Assembly: GCA_024654625.1 (NCBI GenBank)
Contig: JANLHB010000005.1
Location: 7,191-71,190, forward strand
Reading direction: 5' to 3'
DNA length: 64,000 nt
Origin: Patescibacteria group bacterium
Lineage (GTDB): Bacteria; Patescibacteriota; Minisyncoccia; GCA-002772825
Part shown: piece by piece, positions 1-19,474 of the stretch
Position numbering within the stretch: the first letter of the stretch is position 1
Layout of the letters: each line of letters begins with the position of its first letter
Position numbers and translations under genes: made by a program
The notes under the pieces: generated by a model
Databases searched by the model: none
What the model was told of the DNA's origin: nothing
What the model saw: only the letters and a program-made list of their open reading frames with translations

Positions 1-285
1 TCATCTTTAGGCAACACTGAAGAAATTGCACTATTACAAAAATTAATACAATTTCCAAAAGAAATAATGCTAGCAGCCGAAGAATTTAATCCGTCTCGCA
101 TTACTAACCATATTTTTGAAATATCAAGAAGTTTTAATCAATTTTATAACAAACACAAAGTTATATCTGATGATGTACCCCACGAACTAACTGCTGCACG
201 TCTAAATTTTATTCATGCTACGTCCATAGTGTTAAAACAAGGGTTAAACATGATAGGTATTGATGTATTAGAGAGAATGTAATAG
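1..285 (+). CDS. argS: arginyl-tRNA synthetase, C-terminal end (gene start lies left of the window)
   Basis: Frame 1 reads through from position 1 as ...EEIALLQKLIQFPKEIMLAAEEFNPSRITNHIFEISRSFNQFYNKHKV...LNMIGIDVLERM*. This is the typical ArgS DALR anticodon-binding C-terminus, which ends ...M. Confidence 0.8.
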
Positions 286-830
286 GCGACTTCCTTAATG
301 TCTCAAGAATTGAGAGAGGGAAGATAGATTATGAATTTACCAAGTTTGACCTTGGTAAGCTCGTCGACGAACTCTTCGAAGAGTTTAGTCTTAAGATGAA
401 GGAGGAAGGGAAGACGGATCCTAAACTCTACTTTGATACCGAGGTGAAAGGAGAAGTCGTGATAAACGCCGACGAAGGGAAGATCAAGCAAGTCCTCTCC
501 AACCTGATAGATAATTCTATAAAATACACACCTGTCCACCCGAACGGGCCGTCCGGTTTCGTGAAGATTATTTTTACTTTACCTAAAGATAAAGATGTCG
601 CCCTTGTGACTATTAAAGACTCCGGCGCTGGCATGAGCCAAGAAACTATGGGGAGGCTTTTTGATAAGTTCTCTCGGGCAGACAACGCCTCTAAGTTTAA
701 CACTGCCGGTTCCGGCCTCGGCCTCTATGTGGCCAAAGAGTTTATCTCCAAGCACAACGGCCGCCTCTGGGCGGAGAGTGCCGGCGAGGGGAAGGGTAGC
801 ACATTCTTCGTGGAGTTGCCGAAGGGGTAA
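286..830 (+). pseudogene. 5'-truncated sensor histidine kinase fragment, copy 1 of 6 (end of HisKA plus a complete HATPase_c domain); it starts 3 nt after the argS stop and has no H-box
   Basis: Frame 3 translates GDFLNVSRIERGKIDYEF...IDNSIKYT...DSGAGMSQE...GSGLGLYVAKEFISKHNGRLWAESAGEGKGSTFFVELPKG*. The phospho-acceptor His region and the sensor part are absent. Confidence 0.75.
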
Positions 831-840
831 AAAATAAAAA

Positions 841-3459
841 ATGACAGAAAAATATCAAAATAAGTGGATTGATGAAATAAATGAGGCGCATAAAGCTATT
901 AGCAAAATTTGTGTAAAGACAGATGTGAGAAATTTGTCGTGGCTGAAACGTATTGCAGGGATTGATGCGGTTGGGAAATTTGAGAATCAACAAAAGACAG
1001 GCTCTTTTAAATTTAGGGGTGCTTACAATAGATTAAGACGCAATGATCATTTAAGAAATATAATAGTAGCATCAGCGGGAAATCATGGTTTAGCTATAGC
1101 TGAAGCCGCAAAGATTCTTGGATTAAATGCAACAATCTGTATTCCAACAACAGCAAGTCCTCTAAAGCGTAACAGATTAGCTGCTTACGGGTATTCAATC
1201 GTTCCAATAGGAACTCAGCTTGAGGAGTCAACGATTTATGCGAAAAATGTGGCAGAAAAAAATAATTGGGATTTTATTTCTCCATATAATGATTCTCAAA
1301 TTATACAAGGGCAAGCCAGCGTTGCTTTAGAGTTTCTAGAACAGGTCCCCGATATAGATGTCCTTATTGTTCCAGTTGGAGGGGGAGGATTAATTAGTGG
1401 GGTAGGACTCATAGCAAAACAGATAAAACCGGGGATAAAAATAATCGGAGTTGAAGCAGAATCATATTCTTCAGTAGCGTCTTCGCTTAAAGCGGGTAAA
1501 ATAAAAAAAGTAATTAATTATCCAACTTTTGCTGACGGATTGGCTGTGAATCTTGAAGACCGCAGTATCACTTTCGATATAATAAAACAAATTGCAGATG
1601 ACATAATTTTAGTGAATGAAGAAGAGATAGCCGCCGCAGTGTTGGCATTGCTTTATCATGAGAGTCAATTAGTTGAACCGTCTGGAGCTGTAGGTTTGGC
1701 GGCTGTGATAAGTGGTAAAATCAGAACTGGAGCTAAGATTGGTATTATATTTAGTGGAGGGAATATAACGACTGGGAATCTCACTAAAATAATGAATTTC
1801 CCATTTCAAGATAAAAATTTATTTGATTTTATTAATATACATGGAGAAAAAATCTTACACAAAGTTCCACTAAAGGGTATTGATTTTTCTCTTCAAGGGT
1901 ATAAACAAAGAGGATTTCTTTCAGAAAATCAAGAGCTGGATGCACGAGAAGATATTGAATATTTGACAACAAGATTTGATGAAATAAAGCAGATTGTCCA
2001 CCGTATTCAAAATAGACTGAAAGAATATTTGGATTATTGTAATGTAGAGAAATTGAATGTTGATGAATCTGCGGTGTATACAATAACAAATCTCGAAAGA
2101 AATATTACTGAACTACTTGAACAAAACAAAGTGATAAATTTAAATTCAAATTTATCACCTGTTGAGTATGGTAGGCAGGTTACATCTAAATTACAAGCAT
2201 ATAGGTCACTTCTTCACATGGTGATGGTATCTTCGATGGTGCTTGATTGGAGGTCAGCTTCATATGGTCAGAGTTGGGATACTATGTTTTTCGCTTTGGA
2301 TAGTCAGGGGAATCCGGGGGTTAATTATAATAGATACGAAAGCAATCAATTGATTTCTGTAGAAAGGCAACTAGCTGAAGTATTAGGGCTTAATCAAGAA
2401 GAAATTGGACTTTTAGTAACATCTTCCGGTATGGCGGCTTATAATATTATTGAAGCTTATCTTCAGCGACATGTTTTAAAGCCAGGTGACACTGTATTGA
2501 TTCCCCAATATATATATTTTGAAACTGATGAACAGATATCGAAATTACCAAACATAAATATTAAACGAGCTAATACTCATGATATTAATGAAATATGCAA
2601 CCTCATTAAAAAAAATAAACCCAAGGTCGTTTTTCTTGATCCATTGACAAATACTGTTGAATTGCGTTTGACAGATGTAGGGGCTGTGATTAAACATATC
2701 TCGAAAGAGAATCTTAAAAATGATATCTATTTTGTTGTTGATGGAACAATGATGTCAGGGGAAATAAATCCATTCCCCGCAAGTGGTGCAAATTCTCGCG
2801 TGAAAGTTTTATATTATGATAGTTGCAGTAAATACCTTCAGTTGGGACTTGATATTGCCATGGGTGGGCTTGTCGCCATCCCAGTTGAATTTACCGCATT
2901 ATTTGATCGATTAAGGAGAAATACCGGGACAATTATGTATGATTCAGCTAGTAATATATTTCCAACATATTCACGCGAGATACATAGCAAAAGAATGAGA
3001 AGAATGAGTAGAAATGCGATTTTAATCAGTAATGCTATTAATCGAGATAATGAACTCTCTCGGGTGGTGCGAGTTCATTATCCTAATTTGAAATCACATC
3101 CTGATTATGCGCTGGCAGAGAGGTTTAATTCTGTCGGAGGTTTAGTGACTTTTACTTTTACCGACCCTTTTCTTAATCAGCGTGATTCACTAAATAGTTT
3201 CATAGAGACCGCGTTGTCTGTTGCGAAAAAATATGGTATTTCATTGACAAAAGGTGTAAGTTTTGGATTTTCTCTCCCTAGAATATCAGCGGCAACAGCT
3301 ATGGCAGAAAATTCGCCGCCTTTCTTGAGATTGTCGGCTGGAGACAGATCTTACAATGAAACAACATTACTTGCCGACGCTCTTATCGAAGCCTTTAGAA
3401 ATTATATTCATAGTTTTGATAGCCTTAATGATTGTAATAGTGAGACTTCTTCCTCTTAG
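841..3459 (+). CDS. two-domain PLP enzyme: an N-terminal fold-type II threonine/serine dehydratase-like domain fused to a C-terminal fold-type I Cys/Met-metabolism PLP enzyme (cystathionine gamma-synthase / methionine gamma-lyase family)
   Basis: The N-terminal part has GSFKFRGA (PLP lysine), SAGNHG and VGGGGLISG. The C-terminal part has LVTSSGMAAY, VVDGTMMSG and DSCSKYLQLGLDIAMGG (the S-x-x-K PLP lysine context of the CGS family). A ~150-aa linker separates the two parts. Confidence 0.65.
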   Translation: MTEKYQNKWIDEINEAHKAISKICVKTDVRNLSWLKRIAGIDAVGKFENQQKTGSFKFRGAYNRLRRNDHLRNIIVASAGNHGLAIAEAAKILGLNATICIPTTASPLKRNRLAAYGYSIVPIGTQLEESTIYAKNVAEKNNWDFISPYNDSQIIQGQASVALEFLEQVPDIDVLIVPVGGGGLISGVGLIAKQIKPGIKIIGVEAESYSSVASSLKAGKIKKVINYPTFADGLAVNLEDRSITFDIIKQIADDIILVNEEEIAAAVLALLYHESQLVEPSGAVGLAAVISGKIRTGAKIGIIFSGGNITTGNLTKIMNFPFQDKNLFDFINIHGEKILHKVPLKGIDFSLQGYKQRGFLSENQELDAREDIEYLTTRFDEIKQIVHRIQNRLKEYLDYCNVEKLNVDESAVYTITNLERNITELLEQNKVINLNSNLSPVEYGRQVTSKLQAYRSLLHMVMVSSMVLDWRSASYGQSWDTMFFALDSQGNPGVNYNRYESNQLISVERQLAEVLGLNQEEIGLLVTSSGMAAYNIIEAYLQRHVLKPGDTVLIPQYIYFETDEQISKLPNINIKRANTHDINEICNLIKKNKPKVVFLDPLTNTVELRLTDVGAVIKHISKENLKNDIYFVVDGTMMSGEINPFPASGANSRVKVLYYDSCSKYLQLGLDIAMGGLVAIPVEFTALFDRLRRNTGTIMYDSASNIFPTYSREIHSKRMRRMSRNAILISNAINRDNELSRVVRVHYPNLKSHPDYALAERFNSVGGLVTFTFTDPFLNQRDSLNSFIETALSVAKKYGISLTKGVSFGFSLPRISAATAMAENSPPFLRLSAGDRSYNETTLLADALIEAFRNYIHSFDSLNDCNSETSSS

Positions 3460-3489
3460 GATTTTTATTGGAATTATAATTTAATATAT

Positions 3490-4035
3490 TTGTTTATGGA
3501 GAAATCAAATTTTTTTGAAAAACGTATTGAAAGAATGCATAATGCCATAGAAATGGTTCCCACCAAAATTGAAGATATTGATCTTATTGCATCTTGGGAA
3601 TCAAAAGAACCAAATATAATATCTTGGACTAAAGAAAAACATGAATCTATAATAAATAATCCGCAATTCTTACACCTTCTAATTAGTAAGAAAGGTGATA
3701 ATATTGTTCCTGTTGGGTACTCTATTTTGGAAAAGGATTCGCCGGATGAATTGTCTCTAGAGTTTATACGTCTCGTTATATGTGATGAATACAAGAATAA
3801 GGGTTATGGAGTCCTAGCTTTTGAAAATATTTGGGAATTAGCTTTTGATAAATTAAAATATTCTAGAGTTTGGCATGATGTATTTATTGAAAATGAAAAG
3901 GCTATTAATCTTTACGAGAAACTTGGTTATAAAAAATTTAAAACTAGCATTGATTTAACATCCGGTAGAGAGTTGATTTTTTACGAAATGTCTAGCGATG
4001 ATTATTTTTCTAGAGAGAAAGATAATAATTCTTAA
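3490..4035 (+). CDS. GNAT-family N-acetyltransferase
   Basis: Acetyl-CoA motif A-like RLVICDEYKNKGYG and motif B-like NEKAINLYEKLGY. The length is 181 aa. Confidence 0.65.
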   Translation: MFMEKSNFFEKRIERMHNAIEMVPTKIEDIDLIASWESKEPNIISWTKEKHESIINNPQFLHLLISKKGDNIVPVGYSILEKDSPDELSLEFIRLVICDEYKNKGYGVLAFENIWELAFDKLKYSRVWHDVFIENEKAINLYEKLGYKKFKTSIDLTSGRELIFYEMSSDDYFSREKDNNS

Positions 4036-4156
4036 GATATATATTGTGCATAATATCAATATTACGTGGGCCACATTCAATAAGTAATTGCAACTATTAA
4101 TACATAGTGTTATATTTTAATTATTATTAACAGGGCAGAAAATTAAGTAAATTTTT

Positions 4157-6712
4157 ATGGAAAAGCCACCTGATATGCCTAATATCCCCAAAAACTTAAA
4201 CGAAGCGGAAAAAAAAGTTGAAGAAAAAGAAAGATATAATCCTTTTGAAAAAGAAAAATACTGGCAAGATTTCTGGGAAAAGGAAGGTATCTATAAATTT
4301 GATCCTGAGCAACCGGGCCCTCTTTATACTGTAGATACTCCGCCACCAACAATCTCCGGGTCATTGCACCTTGGGCATATTTTTTCTTATACTCAAGCGG
4401 AGGTAATCTCGCGGTTTAAAAGAATGCAAGGGAATAATGTTCGTTATTCTTTTGGTTTTGATAATAATGGTTTGCCAACAGAAAGGTTGGTGGAAAAGGA
4501 ACTTGGGATAAGAGGCGCTAATATGGATTTAGAAGATTTCACAAAAAGCTGCCTTGATATTACGAATAAATATAAACACCTTTATGAAGATCTATGGAAA
4601 TCAATAGGTCTTAGTGTAGACTGGCGACTAGAATATTCCAGTATTTCGCCGGAAGTTCAAAAGAAATCCCAGTCCACTTTTAAGGAGTTATATGAGAGAG
4701 GGGTTATTTATAAAAAAAATGCCCCGGCTCTTTATTGCACAGAGTGTCAGACTTCATTTGCTCAAGCTGAAAAAGAAGATAAAGAAAAAGAAGCTGTTTT
4801 TTATGATTTATCATTTAAGACTGAAGATGATCAGGAATTGATCGTCGCAACAACTCGCCCTGAATTACTGCCCGCATGCAGTGCTGTTTTTGTTAATCCG
4901 GACGATATTAGATTTAAAAACTTAATCGGTAAGAAAGTTATCACTCCCTTGGGAGATGGGGTTGAAATAATGGCTGATGAGAAAGTTGAAAAAGATAAAG
5001 GCTCCGGGGCGGTGATGTGCTGCACCTATGGTGATGAAACAGATATCTATTGGACAAAAAAATATAATTTGAATGAAAAAATCATATTAAACAGATATGG
5101 AAAATTTGAAGATGTAGATGAATTGCCTGACTTGAAAGGGAGGAGAGTAAATGAAGCTAGGAAAATTATCGTTGAAAAATTAAAGTCTGACGGGTTTATA
5201 AAAAAAGAAGAACAGATCAAGCATAATGTTGATGTTCATGAGAGATGCGGTACCCTGGTGGAATTTTTACCGACTACTCAGTGGTTTATGAAAGTACTCG
5301 ATATGAAAGAACGCCTCTTGGATGCGGGAACTCAAATAAAGTGGCATCCTTCATATATGAAGACAAGGTATGAAGATTGGATTAATGGTCTAAAGTGGGA
5401 TTGGTGTATTTCAAGAGAAAGATTTTACGGAATACCAATCCCTGTATTTAGCTGCGATAATTGTGAGAACGTTTTAATCCCAGAGGAAGATCAATTCCCG
5501 ATTGACCCCAAAAAAGAGAAAAATATTCATAATTGTACTGCTTGCGGTGAAGGTAAAATGCTCCCGGAGAAAAATGTCTTGGATACATGGTTTACCTCGT
5601 CTTTATCGCCAGACATAAATAATGACAATCCATTAAATGGCGGATTGAATGGCAAGTTATATCCAATGTCGGTGAGGCCTCAAGCTCACGATATAATTAG
5701 AACATGGGCTGTGTATTCTATCTTGATGGGCTTGTATAAGCATAATGAGATTCCGTGGAGAGATTTAATGATCTCCGGACATATTTTGGTGCAGGAGGGA
5801 GAAAAGATTAGTAAGAAGACCGGTGGAGGAAAATATAAGCCGGAAGAATTAATTGCGACACATTCAGCGGATGCTGTCAGGTATGCGATGTGTGGCGCTT
5901 CGTTAGGCAGAGATTCATATTTTGACGAAAAGGAAGTGAAGAAGGGTAAAAAATTAGTCACTAAAATCTATAATGCCGGCAAGCTGGTGCTTAGTAAACT
6001 GGAAGGATTTGATCCTAAAGTAGAAATAAAAGAAGATGAGCTGGAGGCAATTGACAGGTGGATATTAGACAGATCATTTGAGACGGCAAGTAAGATGTCT
6101 GAATCTTTTGAAAATTATGAATTCAGCCAAGCGCGCCAGATTTTTGAAGACTTTTTTTGGAAAGATTTTTGTGATAATTATTTGGAGATTGTAAAAAGGA
6201 GGCTGGCAATAAAGCCGGACGATAATAAAGAGAAAATGTCAGCGCAATTCACGTCTTACAATTGTTTTCTTAGTGTTATGAAGATGGCTTCTCCTTTTAT
6301 CCCTCATATAACAGAAGAAATGTTCCACGCTCAAACAGTAAAGAAAGAAGATAATGGAGTTGTAAAAGAATCTGTTAGCTCGGAAAGTGGTGGTGGTTAT
6401 TTTTCCAATAATGAAAATATTAAAAGTATACATAGTACTCAGTGGCCATCAACATCACTTGAGTATTCTAATCATGAAAATAATGAAAATGCCAATTTAG
6501 CCTTAGATGTTATCTCAAAAATAAGAAGATTTAAGACTGATAATAAAATAAAATTTGGTACACAAATTACTTTGTTAAAAATAAGATGTCGAGAAGAACA
6601 AAAAAATAAATTAAACGGTTTTTTAGATGATATTACTTCTTTAGCAAAGGCAAATAGTGTTGAAATCGAAATAACAAGTGACGAAGAACTGATTGTAGAG
6701 ATTAGAGTTTAA
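4157..6712 (+). CDS. class Ia aminoacyl-tRNA synthetase (Leu/Ile/Val family), divergent copy with KISKK in place of the canonical KMSKS
   Basis: HIGH region SGSLHLGHIFSY...RFKRMQGNNV...GFDNNGLPTE; WDWCISRERFYGIPIP; DTWFTSS; GEKISKKTGG. The length is 851 aa. It has its own TTGCAA-17-TATATT promoter at about 4098-4126. Confidence 0.6.
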   Translation: MEKPPDMPNIPKNLNEAEKKVEEKERYNPFEKEKYWQDFWEKEGIYKFDPEQPGPLYTVDTPPPTISGSLHLGHIFSYTQAEVISRFKRMQGNNVRYSFGFDNNGLPTERLVEKELGIRGANMDLEDFTKSCLDITNKYKHLYEDLWKSIGLSVDWRLEYSSISPEVQKKSQSTFKELYERGVIYKKNAPALYCTECQTSFAQAEKEDKEKEAVFYDLSFKTEDDQELIVATTRPELLPACSAVFVNPDDIRFKNLIGKKVITPLGDGVEIMADEKVEKDKGSGAVMCCTYGDETDIYWTKKYNLNEKIILNRYGKFEDVDELPDLKGRRVNEARKIIVEKLKSDGFIKKEEQIKHNVDVHERCGTLVEFLPTTQWFMKVLDMKERLLDAGTQIKWHPSYMKTRYEDWINGLKWDWCISRERFYGIPIPVFSCDNCENVLIPEEDQFPIDPKKEKNIHNCTACGEGKMLPEKNVLDTWFTSSLSPDINNDNPLNGGLNGKLYPMSVRPQAHDIIRTWAVYSILMGLYKHNEIPWRDLMISGHILVQEGEKISKKTGGGKYKPEELIATHSADAVRYAMCGASLGRDSYFDEKEVKKGKKLVTKIYNAGKLVLSKLEGFDPKVEIKEDELEAIDRWILDRSFETASKMSESFENYEFSQARQIFEDFFWKDFCDNYLEIVKRRLAIKPDDNKEKMSAQFTSYNCFLSVMKMASPFIPHITEEMFHAQTVKKEDNGVVKESVSSESGGGYFSNNENIKSIHSTQWPSTSLEYSNHENNENANLALDVISKIRRFKTDNKIKFGTQITLLKIRCREEQKNKLNGFLDDITSLAKANSVEIEITSDEELIVEIRV

Positions 6713-6722
6713 TTTATTTAGA

Positions 6723-6978
6723 CTGCCCTCGTGACTATTAAAGACTCCGGCGCTGGCATGAGCCAAGAGACGTTGGATAAAATCTTCGAGAAATTCAACC
6801 GAGCTAAAGATGCCTCCAAGTTCAACACCGAAGGCTCCGGCCTCGGCCTCTACGTGGCTAAAGAGTTCATCGCCAAGCACAACGGCAAGTTGTGGGCGGA
6901 GTCAGCGAGCGTCCCGCCGTGGCGGGATAAAAAGGGAAAGGTAGCACATTCTTCGTGGAGTTGCCGAGGGAGTAGGGG
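6723..6978 (+). pseudogene. histidine-kinase 3' fragment, copy 2 (HATPase_c tail, frameshifted by a ~25-bp insertion that contains the palindrome cccgccgtggcggg)
   Basis: Translation: VTIKDSGAGMSQETLDKIFEKFNRAKDASKFNTEGSGLGLYVAKEFIAKHNGKLWAESA, then the insertion, then ggtagcacattcttcgtggagttgccgaggg. A 38-bp stretch is identical to copy 1. The rest diverges mainly at synonymous sites. Confidence 0.75.
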
Positions 6979-6980
6979 GG

Positions 6981-7469
6981 ATGATAAATATGTTTTATTT
7001 TATAAAAATTATAAATATTTTAAGAAAAATATATTGGTTTATATTCAGGCCTACCACAATAGGGGTCAGGCTTCTAAATATATACAATAATGAAGTTTTA
7101 CTTGTAAAACATACTTATTCTAGTAGCTGGTATTTACCCGGAGGAGGTGCTAAAAATGGAATAGATATTATAGACTCGCTTAAGAGAGAAATTAAAGAAG
7201 AACTCAATATAGATCTTAACGAAGGTCAATTGAGTAGTGCCGATCTGTTTGGAGTTTATGATAATTTCCAGGAATATAAAAACGATTATATCTTTCTGTT
7301 TATCTTAGATAATTTAAAATTAAATTTAACTAAAGCAAAAAATATTGAAATAGAAGAGGCTGGATATTTCAATATTAATAATCTCCCTGGTAGCATATCT
7401 GCCGGTACAAAAAGAAGAATAAATGAGTTTTTATCAAGAAAAGATAAAGTAATAATAAGTAAGTGGTAG
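6981..7469 (+). CDS. NUDIX hydrolase
   Basis: Nudix box LPGGGAKNGIDIIDSLKREIKEELNI. The start follows the gaggg/gggggg stretch at the end of the fragment, which can act as a Shine-Dalgarno sequence. Confidence 0.6.
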   Translation: MINMFYFIKIINILRKIYWFIFRPTTIGVRLLNIYNNEVLLVKHTYSSSWYLPGGGAKNGIDIIDSLKREIKEELNIDLNEGQLSSADLFGVYDNFQEYKNDYIFLFILDNLKLNLTKAKNIEIEEAGYFNINNLPGSISAGTKRRINEFLSRKDKVIISKW

Positions 7470-8749
7470 AGAAAGAAAATAAAATAAAGGCATTAACTCA
7501 ATACAGAGGATTTACTGTTCTTAAGTCTCTGGAGGCAGCTAGTGAAAGAATAGAAATATTAAAAGATATATTGGGAATTAGTGATAATCTAGAATTATTG
7601 AATATTGCAAAAAACGATCCAGAAAAGATACTTTCAAATCTCGGTAATTTATACGACGCCATAGGACCTCGGTCTATGGGGATCAATCCGACCCCTGTAT
7701 GTAATAGACAGTGTACTTTCTGTTCTAGTAGGCAAAGAAATAAGATAAATATAGAAGATAATATTGAAATAACGGAGGATAAATTAAGGAAAGTTTTTGA
7801 AGATTTTATAAGCATGAAAGGGGGAGGGTGTGTGCTGGTTGGTGGAGGAGAGGCATTATTAGCCTGCAAAGGCAAACTTAATGAAGTTATTAATGATTAT
7901 GATTTATATTATGGATTCAATACAAATGGTGTGAATTTGGATAAATTTACGCATGAAAAATTATTAGAAAAAACAAAATGGGTATCACTCAGTTTAATTG
8001 GACACAATAAAGATACATATAATTCTACAGCTGGATTAGATTCTTCAAGTGGTCAGTTTGATGTATTAAATGATAATCTTAAAAAATATATAGAAATAGC
8101 TGATGATTTAAATAGGGAAGGTAAAAGTCATCCCTATATATCAGCAAAAATATTGATATGTAGAGAGAATTATTTATATTCCGGAGAAATATATAATTAT
8201 GCAAAATATTTAGGATTCAAAGATATTTCCCTGAGATGCGTAAACAATTTTGAAATAGAAGAAGAATATAGAAAGAGAAAAATTATTCCTCAAGATATAG
8301 AGCTAACTAAGAAGGAGAAAGAGCAGATAAAAAGTATATTAACCAAAGAAACCGATTTATCAGAAGAGATAATATTTAATATATTGGGTTTACGGGATAA
8401 AATTAAAAATGATACGGTGGTTATAAACCCTACGCTATGTTGGAATGTAGTATTAGGTTTAATAATAAATTTAGATACAAACGGAGAAGTTTTTCTATGT
8501 AACCCAAGGATAGGAATGGAAAGTTTTAGTATTGGAAACATTAATTCAATGAGTCTAAAAAGTCTTTGGAGTGGTTCTATCCATGTTGATGTTGTTAAAA
8601 AAACTTATAAAACATTTAATAAGGGCGCTTGTGACTTAAGTAAATGTCGACACTTTCGTGTAGATCAAGTTATAGAGCAGTTTTTAGAAGGAAAGATATC
8701 ATTAAAAGATAGAAGTTTCGGTGATAAGCAAATGAGTTTTTTCCCTTAG
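7463..8749 (+). CDS. radical SAM protein with a C-terminal SPASM/twitch-like Cys-rich domain and a ~75-aa N-terminal extension
   Basis: CNRQCTFC (CxxxCxxC). C-terminal motifs: NLDTNGEVFLCNP and GACDLSKCRHF. Confidence 0.6.
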   Translation: MVEKENKIKALTQYRGFTVLKSLEAASERIEILKDILGISDNLELLNIAKNDPEKILSNLGNLYDAIGPRSMGINPTPVCNRQCTFCSSRQRNKINIEDNIEITEDKLRKVFEDFISMKGGGCVLVGGGEALLACKGKLNEVINDYDLYYGFNTNGVNLDKFTHEKLLEKTKWVSLSLIGHNKDTYNSTAGLDSSSGQFDVLNDNLKKYIEIADDLNREGKSHPYISAKILICRENYLYSGEIYNYAKYLGFKDISLRCVNNFEIEEEYRKRKIIPQDIELTKKEKEQIKSILTKETDLSEEIIFNILGLRDKIKNDTVVINPTLCWNVVLGLIINLDTNGEVFLCNPRIGMESFSIGNINSMSLKSLWSGSIHVDVVKKTYKTFNKGACDLSKCRHFRVDQVIEQFLEGKISLKDRSFGDKQMSFFP

Positions 8750-8753
8750 AGTT

Positions 8754-8988
8754 TTTTGGAGAAATTCAACCGCGCAGACAACGCCTCCAAGTTCAATACT
8801 GCCGGTTCCGGCCTCGGCCTCTATGTGGCTAAAGCCCCAACACTATCGCTTATCGCGAAAGTGAGGGGTAAAAATTCATCGCCAAGCACAACGGCAAGTT
8901 GTGGGCGGAGTCTGCCGGCGAGGGCAAAGGTAGCACATTCTTCGTGGAGTTGCCGTTAATCTCGACTGGTGTTGAGAAGAAGGGGTAA
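8754..8988 (+). pseudogene. histidine-kinase 3' fragment, copy 3 (disrupted by two short insertions)
   Basis: EKFNRADNASKFNTAGSGLGLYVAK [~40-bp insertion] FIAKHNGKLWAESAGEGKGSTFFVELP [~24-bp insertion] aaggggtaa. Confidence 0.75.
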
Positions 8989-9001
8989 AATGAGGTATAA
9001 T
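8972..9001 (+). promoter_or_regulatory. sigma70-like promoter TTGAGA-18-TATAAT, 7 nt upstream of the ATG at 9009 (leaderless-type arrangement)
   Basis: ttgaga at 8972-8977, which lies inside the second insertion of copy 3. tataat at 8996-9001, followed by ctctata and the ATG. Confidence 0.4.
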
Positions 9002-9008
9002 CTCTATA

Positions 9009-9893
9009 ATGAAATTTGAATTTAGAATCTCAAAATGGGCGAATTTTTATTATTTTGTCCAGAATCTCTCAGAATGGCATTTTAGTAATCGTAAAGATTA
9101 TAATATTTTTTGGAGAGAAAAGCTCAAATCTTTCTCAAAAGATGAGGAATCTGTATTAGAAAAATTTAAAGAGATTAGATTTAAATACCCTAAGACAAAA
9201 AGTTGTTTTGAAAGGGCTTTTTTTCTGTCAGAAAGCCCTTTTGAAGAATTGAATAAATGTTTATCTGAAAGAGAATATTTAACAATGAAGGAAATTTTTA
9301 ATGTTTTAGAGGATAAGTTTGATGCTCTGTATAAAGAAGATGAAGTTCTTCTTAAAAAATGGAAAGATGCATTGAGTGAAGAATCTAATGATAAAAACCT
9401 TATAATAAAAATATTGTCTATATTAAAAATCTTATACAAAAGCAATATTGATACACAAGAAGTTTCTGTCACTCTTTTATTTTCTACTCCTGAGCACATA
9501 GGAGGTGGTGCCAATATAGACCGCAATATGATTAGTCTAGAAGTTTCCCGTTACCCGATAGAAAATATAAATCAAGCCATAGGTATTATTTGGCATGAAA
9601 TAATACATTTGATGTTTCAAGAACGGTATTTTTCATTATTATTGGATTATTTTAAGGAAGATGAGCAGGTAGCTGACCTTGTTAATGAGTTAACCGCTGG
9701 ATCATTATTTCCAAATGGAATTTTAGGTATACGAATATTAAAGAATAAACCATCTACTCAATTATTGCCACAAGTTACCAAAGGGCAAACTATTATGATT
9801 ATTAATTTGGCAAAGGAGTATGTTGAAAAAGGCAGTCAACTGGACAGGAATTTTATCAATAGGTTGATAGATATTATTAAGGAGAAGAATTAA
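9009..9893 (+). CDS. hypothetical protein with an HExxH motif; putative zinc metallopeptidase
   Basis: WHEIIHLMF. There is no other recognisable domain. A convergent terminator hairpin at 9905-9938 follows it. Confidence 0.35.
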   Translation: MKFEFRISKWANFYYFVQNLSEWHFSNRKDYNIFWREKLKSFSKDEESVLEKFKEIRFKYPKTKSCFERAFFLSESPFEELNKCLSEREYLTMKEIFNVLEDKFDALYKEDEVLLKKWKDALSEESNDKNLIIKILSILKILYKSNIDTQEVSVTLLFSTPEHIGGGANIDRNMISLEVSRYPIENINQAIGIIWHEIIHLMFQERYFSLLLDYFKEDEQVADLVNELTAGSLFPNGILGIRILKNKPSTQLLPQVTKGQTIMIINLAKEYVEKGSQLDRNFINRLIDIIKEKN

Positions 9894-9944
9894 AAAAATG
9901 TCCGTCTGAGAAAATAAATTCTCAAACGGACATTTTGGAGGGGG

Positions 9945-10127
9945 TTAACCGCTTATGTCTCCCCACCCTGGGTCGCCGCCGCCGAGGTCGTCCCAATTAC
10001 CCCATTGGTCATCCCAGCCCTTAACGTCTTGTGCTTCTTGCTCTCGACATTCGCGCGGTGTGGCGTTTATGTCGAGGAGACTCCTTGTCCTTTCAGAAGC
10101 TCCCTTGATTGCGTTTGAGCCTGTCAT
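9945..10127 (-). CDS. 60-aa Trp/Asp/Gly-rich small protein translationally coupled to the upstream radical SAM-SPASM gene; candidate RiPP precursor peptide
   Basis: MTGSNAIKGASERTRSLLDINATPRECREQEAQDVKGWDDQWGNWDDLGGGDPGWGDISG. On the minus strand a strong SD, gaaaggagataaaaATG, overlaps the last codons of the radical SAM gene. The region is a local GC-rich patch. Confidence 0.45.
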   Translation of the reverse strand: MTGSNAIKGASERTRSLLDINATPRECREQEAQDVKGWDDQWGNWDDLGGGDPGWGDISG

Positions 10128-10129
10128 TT

Positions 10130-11266
10130 TTATCTCCTTTCTATCCGCGGGGGCGGATGGTTTATTTTCCTCACCTTATCTTCAAGGTAAGTAAAAATTT
10201 CTTTTCTAGTCTCGCAGTAGTAGTATTTTCCTTTTACACCTCCTTTCCTATGCATTGTGCAACCGTTATGACAAGCTTTTTCCCATTTGCACATAATGCA
10301 ATCCTGATGCAGATCGTTCACACCTTTTGCATAATTCATTCTTTCTGATCCATTTAGTATATCTAAGAGCGAAGATCTCGAGATATCACCTAATAGGAAA
10401 TTAGGTTGACCTGATGACCTGTCGCATGGGTAAATTCTCCCATCGTATTCAAGACAGAAATATCCCGAGCATGAGCCGTTAAATGAACATCCAGAACTCT
10501 TTTTCCCGAAGATGACCGCGATAAAGTTTTCAATCTCGCGAAGAGCAAGATTAGGATCGTCTTTATCGAGCCAAAGATTGATCTGTTCTTTGAGAAATCT
10601 CGTCAGTTGCTTGTTTGTCAGACCATGGCTATTTGATTTTAAGCCATTTTGTTCCAGGTCAAGATATACGTTCGTGCCCCACTTCTTGATGCCAAGCTCA
10701 TCCGCAAAAAAATGAAAATTTTCTTTTGTGGATGAAAGACTGGAGGATGTAATAGTCTGAATAAATCCCGGTTTTATGCCGTGCTTACGGATGATCTCTA
10801 GCCCTCTCATTACTGAAGAAAATGTCCCTTTGTCGTTGTTGTTTTTTCTGAATCGGTCATGGCTTTCTTTGTTACCATCTAAGCTAATGCCCACTCGAAA
10901 CTGGTATTTTTTGAAGAGCTCAGCCCACTCGTCGTTGATAAGAGTAGCATTGGTCTGTATAAAGTTTTGAACTTTTTGACCGTTTCTGGTGTTAGACGAT
11001 TGAATACGGACGGCTTCTTCGAAGAAGGGGATACCTGCAAGCAATGGTTCTCCACCGTGCCAGATGAAAGAAAGATTTTCGTTAAAGAGAAGTATGTATT
11101 CGCTTAAAAACTTCTCTAACAGTTCAAAATCCATGATACTGTGAGTAGACTGATCTTTGTCGTTATAGAAGCAGTAGCCACAGCGAAGGTTGCAGTAATC
11201 TCCCGCTGGTTTTATGATTGGGACCATCGTTTTAAGTGGGGAAGTAAGTAACACCCGGTTTTTCAT
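10130..11266 (-). CDS. radical SAM enzyme with a SPASM domain (anSME / RiPP-maturase type)
   Basis: CNLRCGYC near the N-terminus. SPASM motifs: CSGYFCLEYDGRIYPCD and CIMCKWEKACHNGC. A strong SD, aaggaggataaaATG. Confidence 0.75.
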   Translation of the reverse strand: MKNRVLLTSPLKTMVPIIKPAGDYCNLRCGYCFYNDKDQSTHSIMDFELLEKFLSEYILLFNENLSFIWHGGEPLLAGIPFFEEAVRIQSSNTRNGQKVQNFIQTNATLINDEWAELFKKYQFRVGISLDGNKESHDRFRKNNNDKGTFSSVMRGLEIIRKHGIKPGFIQTITSSSLSSTKENFHFFADELGIKKWGTNVYLDLEQNGLKSNSHGLTNKQLTRFLKEQINLWLDKDDPNLALREIENFIAVIFGKKSSGCSFNGSCSGYFCLEYDGRIYPCDRSSGQPNFLLGDISRSSLLDILNGSERMNYAKGVNDLHQDCIMCKWEKACHNGCTMHRKGGVKGKYYYCETRKEIFTYLEDKVRKINHPPPRIERR

Positions 11267-11320
11267 TTTATCCTCCTTGCGTTGTATAGATAAAGGTTAT
11301 TTTTATTTTTTAAAGATCAT

Positions 11321-11350
11321 TTGACAAAGTACAGTTCTAATATGTATAAT
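11321..11350 (+). promoter_or_regulatory. sigma70-like promoter TTGACA-18-TATAAT that reads into HK-fragment copy 4 and the MntA/HepT pair
   Basis: ttgaca at 11321-11326 and tataat at 11345-11350. It lies in a divergent intergenic region shared with the minus-strand radical SAM gene. Confidence 0.5.
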
Positions 11351-11433
11351 GCATATATTATGATTGAAAGTCAACATCAACAAGTTGTAAGCGCCCTAGT
11401 TGTTTTTAATAAGAAATTGCTTCTTTTATAAAA

Positions 11434-11610
11434 GCAAAATCTTCGAGAAGTTCAACCGCACTAAAGACGCCTCCAAGTTCAACACCGAAGGCTCCGGCCT
11501 CGGCCTCTATGTGGCTAAAGAGTTCATCAATAAGCACAACGGCCGCCTCTGGGCGGAAAGCCCGGGGGAGGGCAAAGGGAGTACATTCTTCGTGGAATTG
11601 CCGAGGGGGG
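11434..11610 (+). pseudogene. histidine-kinase 3' fragment, copy 4
   Basis: IFEKFNRTKDASKFNTEGSGLGLYVAKEFINKHNGRLWAESPGEGKGSTFFVELPRG. Its end, ccgaggggggtggtagtATG, supplies an SD for the next gene. Confidence 0.75.
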
Positions 11611-11617
11611 TGGTAGT

Positions 11618-12088
11618 ATGGCGTTAGGAGGTATTTCCTGGTATAATGTTTCTATGAATTTATCCAGAGAGCAGAAAATTAAATTAGCTGATTTTGCCGA
11701 AGCAAATGGTATAAAGTTTATAGTTTTGTTCGGCTCGCAGTCTAGAAAAACTTCTAAAAAAGATAGTGATTTTGATATTGCTGTATTAACAACGCCGGAG
11801 AAGAGCATTTTTGAGAGTTTGGAAAATTATAATAATCTTTTGTTTGGCCTATCTGCTATCTTAGAAATACCGGATTATAAGTTTGATCTAACTGATCTGA
11901 ACAATGCTAATATATTGTTGAGATATGAGATTGTTTCGAGCGGGCAGTTATTGTTTGGAGATGAGATCGATTATCTTGAATTTAAATCTTTTGCGACTAG
12001 GGAGTATATTGACGCTAAGAGATTGTTTGATCTTGAAGATTTTTTAATCAAGAAAAAGCAACGATTACTTTCAGAAGTAGTTCTTTAA
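11618..12088 (+). CDS. nucleotidyltransferase, MntA-type antitoxin
   Basis: LFGSQSRKTSKKDSDFDIAVL (GS...D-x-D). It is paired with the downstream HEPN gene. Confidence 0.65.
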   Translation: MALGGISWYNVSMNLSREQKIKLADFAEANGIKFIVLFGSQSRKTSKKDSDFDIAVLTTPEKSIFESLENYNNLLFGLSAILEIPDYKFDLTDLNNANILLRYEIVSSGQLLFGDEIDYLEFKSFATREYIDAKRLFDLEDFLIKKKQRLLSEVVL

Positions 12089-12093
12089 TTACT

Positions 12094-12561
12094 ATGATAA
12101 AAGAAGATTTTGTAAAAAGGAAAATATCATTGATCCAAGATGAACTCAGTAATCTTGAGCGTCTTTCGCATTATTCTTTTGATGAGATAGCAAGCGACCC
12201 CATAAAGCAGGGAGCATTGGAACGCTTTCTTGAAAGGGTTATTAATAGAGCAATAGATATCAATAATCATATTATCGCAGAGCTTGCAGGTCTTGATACT
12301 GCTACGCCGAAGGATTACACAGATAGTTTCTTGGAGTTGGCGAAGTTGGGTATCTATACTAAAGAGTTTGCGGAAAGTATTTCTAAAAGTGCTGGAACGA
12401 GAAATGTGCTTGTGCATGAATATGATAAAATTGACCAGACTAGGATTTATAATTCAGTCGCGGATTGCTTGCGTGATTATCATAAATATTGCGGATACAT
12501 TTTAGAGTTTCTTGAAAAACAACCAAAGGAGAAATACAACCAAAGGAGAAATAATTTGTGA
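12094..12561 (+). CDS. HepT/DUF86 HEPN-domain toxin
   Basis: R-x4-HEY motif RNVLVHEYD. Confidence 0.65.
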   Translation: MIKEDFVKRKISLIQDELSNLERLSHYSFDEIASDPIKQGALERFLERVINRAIDINNHIIAELAGLDTATPKDYTDSFLELAKLGIYTKEFAESISKSAGTRNVLVHEYDKIDQTRIYNSVADCLRDYHKYCGYILEFLEKQPKEKYNQRRNNL

Positions 12562-12576
12562 GGAGCTTGCTGGTGT

Positions 12577-12668
12577 CACGCCGTGGCGGGATAAAAAGAG
12601 GAAGGCTCGCCCGGATGAACCCGTTCGGACGGGGTAGCACATTCTTCGTGGAGTTGCCGAGGGGGTAG
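12577..12668 (+). pseudogene. histidine-kinase 3' fragment, copy 5 (only the last ~35 nt of the CDS plus the same cgccgtggcgggataaaaag element as copy 2 and a second small hairpin)
   Basis: cacgccgtggcgggataaaaag...cccgttcggacgggg tagcacattcttcgtggagttgccgagggggtag. Confidence 0.7.
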
Positions 12669-12677
12669 GGGATAGTT

Positions 12678-13085
12678 TTACTTTTTGATGAGATGATAAA
12701 TTTCCTTGATATATTCTTTTAGATTGTTATAGCTCAATACCGAAGATACCTCATTTGTCGGTACCCATTTAATGTCATCCCCTTTAAATTCCGGCCTTAA
12801 GAGGGTGTCGTCCTCAGATTGCACTAGAAACATTTTTATTGAAATATTATTTCCATTTGGATGTGTGTAATTTATGTCCGGTAAATCGCATAAAATTTCT
12901 ACTAATAGCCCTGTCTCCTCTTTAACTTCTCTAATCATTGCGTTAGTCGGATCCTCACCATCCTCAATGTGTCCCTTGGGAAAGGACCAATCTTTTTGTT
13001 TCCCACTATAAAGCAGGGCAATTTTACTTTGATCATCCTTACTCAAAATAATAGCGCCGGCTTTCTGGATTAATTTAATAGTCAT
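12678..13085 (-). CDS. NUDIX hydrolase
   Basis: Nudix box GHIEDGEDPTNAMIREVKEETGL. Confidence 0.7.
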   Translation of the reverse strand: MTIKLIQKAGAIILSKDDQSKIALLYSGKQKDWSFPKGHIEDGEDPTNAMIREVKEETGLLVEILCDLPDINYTHPNGNNISIKMFLVQSEDDTLLRPEFKGDDIKWVPTNEVSSVLSYNNLKEYIKEIYHLIKK

Positions 13086-13135
13086 AGTTAGTATTACACT
13101 ATATCACTTATATACCTTTTAGGTTGCAGGTACCC

Positions 13136-13831
13136 CTATTGGGTGATTTTTTTTGCAATTAAAATTAGCCTTGGACTGGTCAAAGAATATTCACTAAAAT
13201 CATAGTTGCCGATAACACGCTCAACAGAAAAACCGGATTTTTCCATCCATTGACTCCAAACAGGATAAGGTGGGTATGGAATTCTAAGATTAGCTTTTTT
13301 ATCGATAAGCTCTAATTTTTTCGCATCAAATGCAAATGGCGAGTTAGGATTTTTCTCAAGGTAAGAAACGATCCTAAATAAATTATCCGTATCAATCAGA
13401 ATTTTGCCTCCGGGTTTAATGTTGCGACCTATTGAAGAGACTGCCTTTTCAATGTTGATGTTGGCTAAGTCGGAGAAAAACCAGTATGCCTTGTCATATT
13501 TCTTTCTTAACTTTAGTTGTTCAATATTGGCTTTATAATAATTCGGCGTTCTTTTGCCGGATTTTTTAGATTCATCTTTTGCTTTACTAAGTAGGTATTT
13601 AGAAAAATCAACACCGTCTACTAAATAACCTCTTTCACTTAGGGCTTTTGTGTGGCGACCTTGCCCGCAAGCAATATCAAAGATGGTATCATTTTTTTTA
13701 AGACTAAGAGCTTTAATTAAAAAGTCAGAATCTTTCTTTATACTTGCTGAAGTTAGAAATGAATCATGATCCTTTAAATAATCACCCTTTTCTCCGTAGT
13801 ATTTAGATAAAAATTCTTTAGATTTTGACAT
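13136..13831 (-). CDS. class I SAM-dependent methyltransferase
   Basis: Motif I IFDIACGQGRHT. The length is 231 aa. Confidence 0.65.
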   Translation of the reverse strand: MSKSKEFLSKYYGEKGDYLKDHDSFLTSASIKKDSDFLIKALSLKKNDTIFDIACGQGRHTKALSERGYLVDGVDFSKYLLSKAKDESKKSGKRTPNYYKANIEQLKLRKKYDKAYWFFSDLANINIEKAVSSIGRNIKPGGKILIDTDNLFRIVSYLEKNPNSPFAFDAKKLELIDKKANLRIPYPPYPVWSQWMEKSGFSVERVIGNYDFSEYSLTSPRLILIAKKITQ

Positions 13832-13904
13832 GGTGTATTCTTATATGTATTAATATACTGGATAATATATCAAATAGAAGGTAAAGATGATAGTATGTAT
13901 AATG

Positions 13905-13938
13905 TGACCCATTCTTCGTGGAGTTGTCGTAGGGGAGA
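13905..13938 (+). repeat. histidine-kinase 3' fragment, copy 6 (shortest remnant: tgacccattcttcgtggagttgtcgtagggg)
   Basis: It matches the terminal ~30 nt of the other copies. It is preceded by tatgtataatg, the same -10 context that lies upstream of copy 4. Confidence 0.65.
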
Positions 13939-13977
13939 GAGTAGATTTGATAATAGTTTTTATGGTATAATGTTCTT

Positions 13978-14268
13978 ATGGAAAAAGACGTTATTATTAA
14001 AAAATTGGATAAAAGCCTGTCGGTTTTGAAAGAGAAATACAATGTGAGAAGCATTGGTGTTTTCGGTTCGTATGTAAGAAATGAGGCAAAGGCAGGGAGT
14101 GATTTGGATATTTTAGTCACATTTGAAAAGCCGATAGGATTGTTAAAATTTATAGAACTGGAAAATTATCTCTCAGAATTGACAGGAATAAAAGTTGATT
14201 TGGTATCTCAGAAAGCGCTTAAGCCCAGGATAGGAAAGCAGATATTGGAAGAAGTGGTGAATGTCTGA
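13978..14268 (+). CDS. nucleotidyltransferase, MntA-type antitoxin (second copy, a divergent paralog)
   Basis: VFGSYVRNEAKAGSDLDILV. Confidence 0.65.
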   Translation: MEKDVIIKKLDKSLSVLKEKYNVRSIGVFGSYVRNEAKAGSDLDILVTFEKPIGLLKFIELENYLSELTGIKVDLVSQKALKPRIGKQILEEVVNV

Positions 14269-14623
14269 TCTTATGAAAAGAGATTATCTGGATTATCTTC
14301 AAGATATTATTGACTCAATAAATGACATTGAGAGTTTTGTTGGTGGGATGAATTTTAATTCGTTTGAAAAAGATAAAAAAACTATGAATGCGGTTGTAAG
14401 GAGCTTAGAGATAATCGGCGAAGCTGTTAAGAAAATACCGGAAGATGTGAAGGATAAGTACTCAGATATTCCATGGAAGAATATGTCGGGCATGAGAGAT
14501 AAACTAATCCATGAATACTTTGGCATTGATGAAGAGATTGTTTGGAATGTTGCAATAGAAGAATTGCCTCCTCTTGGGTCATTGTTTAAAAAAATTTTAA
14601 CAGAATCGGGGACGGAGGAATAA
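14261..14623 (+). CDS. HepT/DUF86 HEPN toxin (second copy)
   Basis: RDKLIHEYFGID. Confidence 0.65.
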   Translation: MSDLMKRDYLDYLQDIIDSINDIESFVGGMNFNSFEKDKKTMNAVVRSLEIIGEAVKKIPEDVKDKYSDIPWKNMSGMRDKLIHEYFGIDEEIVWNVAIEELPPLGSLFKKILTESGTEE

Positions 14624-14627
14624 GGCC

Positions 14628-15377: not shown

Positions 15378-15383
15378 TTATTA

Positions 15384-15671
15384 ATGACCAAAAAATTTCA
15401 GCGGAATATTGAGGACTTCGTGTGCGGGCATTGCGGGGCGAGAGTCAGGGGCAACGGCTACACTAACCATTGCCCCAAGTGCCTGTGGAGCAAGCATGTG
15501 GATGTGAACCCGGGCGACAGGGGAGCGGACTGCGGAGGGATGATGAAGCCCGTTTCTGCCGAGCAGAAGAGTGGAGAGTGGCGGATCCTCCATAAGTGTG
15601 AGAAATGCGGACATGAGAAGATAAACAGGCTATCAAAAGATGACGACTTTGATAAAGTGACGAAGATGTAA
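15384..15671 (+). CDS. RNHCP-domain zinc-ribbon protein
   Basis: CGHCG...TNHCPKC...CEKCGH. The gene is GC-rich compared with its flanks. Confidence 0.45.
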   Translation: MTKKFQRNIEDFVCGHCGARVRGNGYTNHCPKCLWSKHVDVNPGDRGADCGGMMKPVSAEQKSGEWRILHKCEKCGHEKINRLSKDDDFDKVTKM

Positions 15672-15711
15672 TCTTAACCTCGATATAAGTTCGTGATATA
15701 ATTACCTCGTT

Positions 15712-17514: not shown

Positions 17515-17572
17515 TAAAAACACATCTCCATTCATTTGGTCCACTTGGAAACCGAGTTTCCAAGTCCAAGTG

Positions 17573-17596
17573 TTCAATCCGCCACGGCGGATTGAA
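17573..17596. repeat. REP-like palindrome ttcaatccgccacggcggattgaa. Family members lie at 38296-38321 and, as a half-copy, at 60998-61014.
   Basis: Perfect inverted repeats with a GC core and AT-rich flanks. All copies are intergenic. Confidence 0.55.
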
Positions 17597-17610
17597 TAAA
17601 TAAGATAAAA

Positions 17611-17651: not shown

Positions 17652-17673
17652 ATTGTTTGTGTCGTTTGCCTGT

Positions 17674-19427: not shown

Positions 19428-19474
19428 CCAATAATACTGGTAAAATCGTTTTAAAATGGTATTATCTAAGACGT

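Follow-up and report, generated by a model that had tools for sequence, protein, structure and literature searches.

Why does the 3' end of one protein-coding gene recur six times along a bacterial chromosome, each time beside different genes, and do these repeated ends provide the signals from which the genes behind them are expressed? We addressed this question in a 64-kb stretch of chromosomal DNA (64,000 nucleotides [nt] of contig JANLHB010000005.1, hereafter the window) from a metagenome-assembled genome (MAG) of a member of the Patescibacteria (Parcubacteria), whose proteins are deposited at NCBI as MCR4342302-315, from a contig of 105,920 bp, with a second record as MCR4284378-388. Using the longest copy as a tblastn query, we identified six kinase relics, all of them 5'-truncated pieces of the 3' end of one WalK-like histidine kinase gene (HATPase_c domain); the same search found no full-length kinase gene in the window. 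A preliminary description of this sequence had proposed that the fragment ends double as expression signals for the downstream "cargo" genes. Our results favor a different history: the array was probably built at the native locus of the kinase by stacking imported blocks, each carrying the end of a kinase gene, with a cargo that would be expressed from leaderless promoters or by read-through. The sequence shows the anatomy of the array, its gene starts, the promoter statistics and the signature of selection on the copies; the recombination route and the read-through transcription are inferred.

Origin of the kinase fragments

The fragments, numbered as copies 1 to 6, all lie on the plus strand (285-830, 6722-6980, 8749-8955, 11432-11627, 12557-12672 and ~13909-13936). 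The longest relic, copy 1, starts 2 nt past the stop codon of argS and retains the end of the DHp domain and HATPase_c over 181 codons. The copies are 72-88% identical to each other and their exact shared stretch spans ~35 nt. Between copies, the ratio of nonsynonymous to synonymous divergence (dN/dS) is 0.06-0.13, with dS values of 0.1-1.2. These low ratios indicate that the copies diverged within working genes of separate lineages and not by decay in place. Such divergence under purifying selection suggests, in turn, that each module was imported with the kinase end of its donor.

We then compared the locus with those of related lineages. The conserved right flank of the array (15384-28010, plus strand: RNHCP, ABC transporter, AspRS, ScpA, ScpB, S11 peptidase, MraY, FtsW and MurG) is syntenic with two of them (L017 and L018), in which one or two aminoacyl-tRNA-synthetase genes separate an upstream kinase gene from the ABC or AspRS genes. 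In the complete 742-kb genome of L021, an intact kinase of 287 amino acids (aa) is followed by a NUDIX gene (TGATATAAT-7-ATG), a methyltransferase gene and AspRS, with no fragments. The synteny of the right flank and the arrangement in L021 indicate that the array sits at the native locus of the kinase.

Repeated 3' fragments of the kinase were found in three other loci: L001 and L016 have three copies each and L012 has two; the kinase of the L016 lineage is only 49% identical. The junction between valS and the fragment is common to L001 (an independent ENA assembly) and the window, with 89% identity. In L012, two fragments flank an MNT-HepT toxin-antitoxin pair, which is followed by a glycosylation cluster, RNHCP and the ABC transporter; this was the one relevant locus returned by a scan of metagenome contigs with the terminal 19-20-mer, and the same scan of genome contigs returned unrelated kinases only. 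L019 was also considered and set aside as irrelevant, its kinase being cut by the contig edge and followed by a response regulator. Finally, L023, from another Patescibacteria genome, has at 2696-3781 an amidohydrolase gene orthologous to that at 24157-25725 of the window. It is cut after ~165 residues and joined in frame to the 3' part of a kinase gene; behind this fusion comes a gene for a MazE antitoxin, which has a -10 box of its own. This fusion shows that kinase relics also occur away from the kinase locus.

Several of these loci bear on how the copies recombine. Copies A and B of L016 are 95% identical over 144 nt and surround a 4-kb insert without integrase; they are identical over ~124 nt and differ precisely in their last 25 nt, which argues for a crossover inside the gene and not at its terminus. 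The three copies of L001 (1-143, 4533-4709 and 10435-10612) are 98-100% identical; identity is only 87% between copy 2 and its positional orthologue L001c, and 89% between the adjoining valS genes. The identity of the L001 copies points to concerted evolution within that genome. Copy 5 and L012b have a private insertion in common, but the identity of the toxin-antitoxin genes that lie between the flanking fragments reaches only 28-34%. MNT-HepT pairs are bracketed by kinase fragments in three loci (window 11654-12561, L012 11085-11889 and L016 6360-7510): those of L012 and L016 are 69-74% identical despite their diverged kinases, and the window pair is 28-34% identical to them. No kinase fragments flank the close MNT homologue of L025, indicating that the toxin-antitoxin module is not tied to the fragments.

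We propose that the six fragments would be non-functional, 5'-truncated relics of the kinase 3' end at its native locus, each forming the left edge of a block that came from a different relative and spanned the interior of the donor kinase and the genes downstream of it. The blocks would have been stacked by homologous recombination between kinase sequences, probably through Campbell-type insertion of circularised DNA. Further recombination would then have homogenised the relics or exchanged them, and deletions would have worn them down from the 5' side, as copy 4 documents (see below). Their common 3' boundary would mark where the conserved kinase gene ends and the donor-specific genes start. 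Some donor genes may have arrived with their leaderless promoter (those of the 9009 type, both MNT-HepT pairs of the window, L012a, L016B and the NUDIX gene of L021), and others may have been operon partners of the kinase (841, 6990, L012b and L016A, the last with an ATGA overlap).

Fragment termini and reading frames

Between positions 808 and 14000, the terminus GAGTTGCCGARGGG has five matches with at most two mismatches, against ~0.24 expected by chance in the whole window. We aligned 13 fragment ends from four loci and obtained the common ending ...GSTFFVELP-(R/K/M)-G-stop, encoded by CCG AGG GGG TAG G(G/C). The homology runs ~4-6 nt past the stop codon and then ceases. The G-run of the fragment ends, which had been seen as a supply of Shine-Dalgarno sequences, therefore consists of the last codons of the kinase itself (Pro-Arg/Lys/Met-Gly-stop) with ~4 additional nucleotides.

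It had also been suggested that the kinase frame terminates just before or overlapping the start of the downstream genes at 841, 6981 and 11618, and that the fragment may be translated as a short leader ORF (open reading frame) coupled to the gene behind it. The frames do not bear this out. The kinase frame is intact in copies 1 and 4 only, and copies 5 and 6 are reduced to 13 and 7 codons. Copy 1 ends ...FFVELPKG-TAA (G-run at 824-827), 10 nt before the start at 841. In copy 2, the terminal frame stops at 6973-6975 (GGGGGG at 6975-6980); a GC-rich insertion of ~25 nt containing the palindrome CCCGCC-GT-GGCGGG shifts the frame, so that the ORF entering the copy (6731-7090) passes position 6981 and continues 110 nt into the NUDIX gene in a different frame. 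Copy 3 contains a 35-nt insertion (8835-8869) and a frameshift, and its G-rich tail is replaced by TTAATCTCGACTGG. The frame of copy 4 (GAGGGGGG at 11603-11610) is open from 11400 to 11627 and ends 26 nt short of the start at 11654. Copy 5 is short, with two GC-rich insertions, and ends PRG-TAG-GGG; copy 6 ends PFFVELS-stop.

The GC-rich palindromic insertions fall at one codon position, in the GEGKGS loop, in copy 2 (6905-6930), copy 5 (12574-12633) and L012b (10965-11010, minus strand). Copy 5 carries both types, one as in copy 2 and one as in L012b. We considered the inserted palindrome of copies 2 and 5 as a terminator and rejected it, because no T-run follows it on either strand. No attC-like or terminator-like structure was found at the fragment ends, and no conserved hairpin or dyad symmetry emerged when 80 nt around each of 14 ends were folded for either strand (z-scores from -2.5 to +1.6).

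Gene starts in the genome

We asked how genes start elsewhere in this genome. A -10 box was defined as a hexamer with at least five of six matches, A at position 2 and T at position 6, ending 4-11 nt before the start. Such a box precedes 26 of the 61 gene starts in the window, compared to 8.4% of all 1,820 ATGs, and it precedes 33 of 88 genes in six related loci (background of ~8%). We listed the 45 nt upstream of every sizeable ORF; all along the window, TATAAT is repeatedly found 6-9 nt ahead of the ATG. Moreover, 16 of the 141 perfect TATAAT hexamers lie 4-11 nt before the ATG of an ORF of 60 codons or more, where a rough estimate predicts less than one.

Shine-Dalgarno-like motifs (4-7-mers of AAGGAGGTGA, or a run of at least four G; the 3' end of the 16S lies outside the window) are not enriched: they were found at 10 of the 61 genes against 14.7% of all ATGs, and the fragment tails account for three of these ten. 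Unambiguous GGAGG or G-run motifs stand upstream of the native genes at 10130 (minus), 14628, 21978, 45280 (minus) and 56241 (minus), which suggests that the Shine-Dalgarno mechanism exists here as a minority. The enrichment of the -10 box before real genes points to a promoter-start unit of the leaderless type, and these statistics indicate that leaderless starts dominate the genome.

This organization resembles the "group C" defined with GeneMarkS-2, in which transcription is leaderless and a Pribnow box lies ~10 nt from the start (PMC6028130). As in the bacteria of that group (such as Mycobacterium and Deinococcus; PMC6028130), TATAAT stands 6-9 nt before the ATG with no Shine-Dalgarno sequence, here at ~40% of the genes, including those at 9009, 11654 and 13978. 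The difference is one of lineage, since the present case concerns Patescibacteria, and of evidence, our assignment of leaderless starts being drawn from sequence statistics. The literature that we searched contains no measured leaderless transcription and no experimental mapping of start sites for Patescibacteria.

Promoters near the fragments

The two best sigma-70 matches in positions 1-16000 are TTGACA-18-TATAAT at 11321-11350 (12/12), upstream of copy 4, and TTGAGA-18-TATAAT at 8972-9001 (11/12); the total number of promoter-like sites is no higher than in shuffled sequences (48 vs 53 +/- 7). The first of these promoters had been described correctly, as had the ...tatgtataatg box abutting copy 6 (TGTATAAT, 13896-13903). 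The accompanying claim that the only strong promoters of the array lie directly upstream of fragments does not hold: perfect TATAAT boxes stand 6-7 nt before the ATGs at 9009, 11654 and 13978, just downstream of fragments 3, 4 and 6.

The promoter at 11321-11350 is followed after 9 nt by the ATG at 11360 and by a 23-codon ORF, MIESQHQQVVSALVVFNKKLLLL and a stop codon, which ends where copy 4 begins; promoter and remnant together occupy 11321-11431 on the plus strand. Both the remnant (11360-11431) and its promoter are homologous to those of an intact NUDIX gene in L001 (136 aa, directly upstream of fragment b, with a TTGACA...TATAAA promoter and the N-terminus MITGQPAKIVSAIIVANGKILLLL). This homology identifies 11321-11350 as the promoter of a truncated NUDIX gene. 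A deletion has removed the body of the NUDIX gene together with the 5' part of the kinase, fusing the remnant to copy 4.

The promoter at 8972-9001 does end 7 nt before the ATG at 9009, as reported, but no insertion in copy 3 gave rise to it. Copy 3 in the window and fragment b in L001, whose end is intact, are both followed by the block GTTGAGAAGAAGGGrTAAAwTGAGGTATAAT-N7-ATGAAAT (8966-9015 and L001 4710-4759), in which ~43 of 50 nt are identical. Although these promoters match, BLASTP detected no homology between the two genes that they precede. A promoter block of ~45 nt is thus shared by unrelated genes, which places a breakpoint within a few nucleotides of the start codon.

The TGTATAAT box has no ATG behind it and represents an orphan extended -10. 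It belongs to an 11-mer, TATGTATAATG, that has only two occurrences in the 64 kb: in the NUDIX promoter (11341-11351) and abutting copy 6 (13894-13904). Both sites are followed by an MNT-HepT pair. From this resemblance, copy 6 may be a deeper deletion derivative of the NUDIX-kinase-MNT-HepT unit of copy 4.

Expression of the modules

In the raw sequence, G-runs end at 827, 6980 and 11610 and ATGs stand at 841, 6981 and 11618, so that the coordinates and distances from which a Shine-Dalgarno role had been deduced are accurate. Two of the three starts, however, are not those of the genes. Counted to the starts that we retain, the spacing from the G-run is 13 nt (841), 9 nt (6990) and 43 nt (11654), compared to 7 nt for ATG 11618.

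The MNT nucleotidyltransferase of module 4 is annotated from 11654 (144 aa), an in-frame ATG within the longer ORF that is preceded by TGGTATAAT and 6 nt. Support for this start comes from 120 homologues of 131-165 aa that cover at most 92-94% of the 156-aa ORF from 11618. The closest MNT homologue outside this genome opens with MDLAKSQKLKL, compared to MNLSREQKIKL in the window. The comparison indicates that 11618 is not a start and that 11654 is the real, leaderless one. Module 4 (11640-12561, plus strand: TGGTATAAT-6-ATG, then MNT and HepT at 12094-12561) and module 6 (13964-14623, plus strand: TGGTATAAT-6-ATG, an MNT of 96 aa from 13978 and HepT at 14261-14623) are both toxin-antitoxin pairs.

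Module 3 begins with the TTGAGA-18-TATAAT-7-ATG unit (8972-9011, plus strand), which leads into a gene of 294 aa (9009-9893, plus strand) with an HExxH motif (WHEIIHLMF) and no Pfam match; the second gene of the module, on the minus strand, encodes the second radical-SAM protein of the array. A decayed remnant of a homologue of the 294-aa protein lies at 2392-2500 of L016, where it overlaps the stop codon of kinase copy A (ATGA); the two have the motif NLSEWHFS in common. Modules 3, 4 and 6 would be expressed as leaderless mRNAs from their own TATAAT units (starts 9009, 11654 and 13978). Module 5 is on the minus strand (NUDIX 12678-13085 and methyltransferase 13136-13831), with the end of copy 5 lying 6 nt from the stop of its convergent gene; this divergent module would have its own upstream region and could not be expressed from fragment 5.

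Modules 1 and 2 differ in having no promoter of their own. The first gene of module 1 (841-3459, plus strand, 872 aa) is a fusion of PALP and Cys_Met_Meta_PP domains without a -10 box. Its PALP domain is of the cystathionine beta-synthase/cysteine synthase type, and the fusion resembles a two-step transsulfuration enzyme. The start at 841 agrees with the deposited annotation and is the first start codon after an in-frame stop, the PALP domain beginning at residue 26; the spacer that separates it from the G-run (TAAAAAATAAAAA) is A-rich and, at 13 nt, outside the usual Shine-Dalgarno spacing. This gene is followed by a GNAT gene and by valS (4157-6712, plus strand), a housekeeping valine-tRNA ligase with thousands of orthologues, which implies that the cargo is not purely accessory. 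Module 2 (plus strand) consists of a NUDIX gene annotated from 6990 and not from 6981 (6990-7469, 159 aa) and of a radical SAM/SPASM gene (7463-8749). No promoter was found in copy 1 or, by promoter scan, between the valS stop (6712) and 6990; the relics upstream of 841 and 6990 hold only weak -10-like hexamers, far from the starts.

The lack of promoters suggests that transcription passes through fragments 1 and 2 from argS and valS, respectively. For these two modules, the proposal that the cargo is transcribed through its fragment may therefore stand; it does not extend to modules 3, 4 and 6, with their own promoters, or to module 5 on the opposite strand. We propose that, in the donors, modules 1 and 2 shared an operon with the kinase, and that they would now be expressed by read-through from argS (module 1) and valS (module 2), the G-rich tail at most aiding initiation at 6990. 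With its G-run at a workable distance of 9 nt, 6990 is the only junction for which a Shine-Dalgarno supply is plausible.

Alternative explanations

Some observations weigh against the stacking of imported blocks. Full-length kinase genes head none of the recovered arrays (copy 1 lies directly against argS, and the locus ends truncate L001a and L012a), and no circular intermediate or crossover product was seen. Leaderless initiation and read-through are both read from the DNA itself. At synonymous sites, the terminal ~20 nt of the fragments (TTCTTCGTGGARTTGCC) vary less than the remainder, which holds even for the distant lineage of L016, and this conservation could also stem from a site-specific target. 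Fragment length drops steadily from left to right (545, 254, 207, 180, 113 and ~30-35 nt), a gradient that the stacking model accommodates but does not predict. The high GC-content of the fragments at third codon positions (GC3) is explained by conjecture only: it may reflect biased gene conversion at a recombination hotspot. The shortest fragment, copy 6, adjoins the conserved right flank, and the length gradient fits with older relics being more eroded.

The composition of the fragments is also the starting point of an alternative that we regard as possible, if rather doubtful. The fragments present a GC-content of 48-61% and a GC3 of 0.6-0.87 that climbs toward the 3' end (0.87 in the last 30 codons). 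The cargo presents 29-37% GC and a GC3 of 0.22-0.43 (0.22-0.33 without the minus-strand radical-SAM and NUDIX genes), and the single-copy kinases of L017 and L018 have a GC3 of ~0.2. According to this alternative, the fragments are working homology anchors of an integrase-free, RecA-driven cassette-exchange locus, the high GC3 being the footprint of biased gene conversion, and some of them carry a portable block with a leaderless promoter. GC-rich anchors could let the modules (toxin-antitoxin pairs, NUDIX, methyltransferase, radical-SAM and glycosylation genes) insert, swap or excise as circles between strains, and the block common to copy 3 and L001b could drive any gene landing behind it.

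We find it unlikely that the array grew by site-specific accretion, with the terminal ~35 nt of the kinase gene and GGGGTAGG serving as the attachment site of a tyrosine or serine recombinase encoded elsewhere, or of a host Xer-type enzyme, and with tandem integrative islands accumulating as at tRNA/tmRNA genes. Integrated islands classically show inserted DNA bracketed by direct repeats of the 3' end of their target gene, and such repeats flank the inserts in the window and in the three related loci with fragment repeats. All copies have their 3' boundary in common within ~5 nt, and the terminal 20 nt are nearly invariant, including at synonymous sites and in L016. Nevertheless, no integrase or recombinase domain was found in the scanned window proteins of at least 90 aa (a few short ORFs were omitted) or in the scanned L012 cargo genes, and no integrase is present among the precomputed Pfam matches of the L001 and L016 loci. 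The repeats do not have a fixed length (35-780 nt), their ends lack the dyad symmetry or conserved hairpin mentioned above, and L016 copies A and B differ in exactly the terminal 25 nt, leaving no fixed crossover core.

It is improbable that the fragment ends act as portable expression signals, supplying Shine-Dalgarno sequences, coupling through leader ORFs and upstream promoters to a cargo comparable to promoterless integron cassettes. This explanation draws on the G-runs 13, 9 and 7 nt before the ATGs at 841, 6990 and 11618, on the lack of promoters in modules 1 and 2, on the few native genes that use G-rich or GGAGG motifs, on the sequence behind L012b (GAGGAGGGG-N9-ATG) and on the promoter block that travels with the fragment end in two loci, before different genes. 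Against it, Shine-Dalgarno motifs are not enriched genome-wide, ATG 11618 is no real start and the G-run is poorly spaced from 841. Frameshifts interrupt copies 2 and 3, one module is inverted, three others bring leaderless promoters of their own, and the promoter at 11321 belongs to the remnant of a NUDIX gene. A close start with a G-rich upstream region was found at no more than three of the 13 fragment ends.

The source being a MAG, and the modules resembling alternative versions of one locus, an assembler might have chained strain haplotypes downstream of the kinase via the shared kinase sequence. This is very improbable: the junctions between cargo ends and truncated kinases are unique sequences, and the junction between valS and fragment 2 recurs at 89% identity in the independent ENA assembly. 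Arrays are present in JGI and ENA contigs of other samples, and the genes from NUDIX (6990) to the second MNT (13978) are found in two NCBI records. Moreover, the copies are 72-88% identical and their exact stretch of ~35 nt is shorter than the final assembly k-mers. Lastly, a store of silent cassettes donating to an expressed kinase by gene conversion, as pilS does for pilE, is scarcely credible and was rejected on the low dN, since the copies, although 5'-truncated, promoterless, arrayed and subject to conversion in L001, encode a nearly invariant protein (dN/dS ~0.1) with no diversity to donate, several carry frameshifting insertions and no expressed full-length copy was found in the window.

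Other features of the window

Outside the array, the genes of the window are housekeeping genes (AspRS, ScpA/B, MraY, FtsW, MurG, GltX, MreB/C, a ProRS-type synthetase, RRF, YchF, pyruvate kinase and Ddl), and a single tRNA-Ala is the sole Rfam match. Between 33000 and 45000, the cumulative GC skew peaks and the orientation of the genes changes from mostly plus to mostly minus, a pattern suggestive of a replication terminus. A single gene of the window is transposase-like (48692-49687, minus strand): in its 331-aa product, HTH_38 and HTH_32 domains scored, such as IS30-type transposases carry at their N-terminus, but no catalytic domain did.

Comparison with known arrays

Tandem genomic islands at tRNA/tmRNA genes, for instance the islands and tycheposons of Prochlorococcus, are split by 3' fragments of the target gene. 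The present array resembles them in that direct repeats of the 3' end of one gene separate AT-rich accessory blocks at a single hotspot. It differs in its target, a protein-coding kinase gene, in its diverged repeats of 35-780 nt, in the lack of a detected integrase and in its crossovers, which appear to lie inside the homology and not at a core site.

A likeness is also found in the orphan-module arrays of rhs, cdiA and maf (contact-dependent inhibition [CDI] orphans; PMC6336857), in which 5'-truncated fragments each precede a different downstream module and stacking proceeds by recombination in the conserved part, old ends being displaced and not lost. In the window, the 5'-truncated copies have likewise diverged under purifying selection, each with a different module. 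The intact head gene is missing, as copy 1 starts at the argS stop and the window contains no other kinase. Furthermore, the conserved gene is here a signalling kinase, and the modules are metabolic, modification or toxin-antitoxin genes instead of toxin tips with immunity genes.

The array also recalls the cassette arrays of integrons: in both, small modules are split by a recurring sequence, and toxin-antitoxin modules under their own promoters are scattered among the others here as in chromosomal integrons. The analogy with promoterless integron cassettes, raised in the preliminary description, nonetheless fails on the integrase, the attC structure, the uniform orientation and the lack of promoters: no IntI was found among the scanned window proteins of at least 90 aa, the array is devoid of attI, a common Pc promoter and folded attC sites, its modules are in mixed orientation, half of them have their own promoter and the recurring sequence is the relic of a gene. 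The literature that we searched contains no description of kinase-fragment arrays.

Implications

Our results suggest that no special mechanism is required for the expression of the cargo. Two of the three starts thought to be supplied with a Shine-Dalgarno sequence were mis-called, and, where genes start leaderless, calling the longest ORF tends to draw the promoter into the gene; such mis-calls constitute a practical warning for gene calling in Patescibacteria. The locus further presents, in an ultra-small genome and with no visible integrase, a hypervariable island that has accreted at a conserved protein-coding gene and not at a tRNA gene. The divergence of the copies under purifying selection, their concerted evolution within a locus and their high GC3 point to recombination as the engine of this accretion. 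If true, this would offer a route to ask how reduced, episymbiotic bacteria swap accessory genes.

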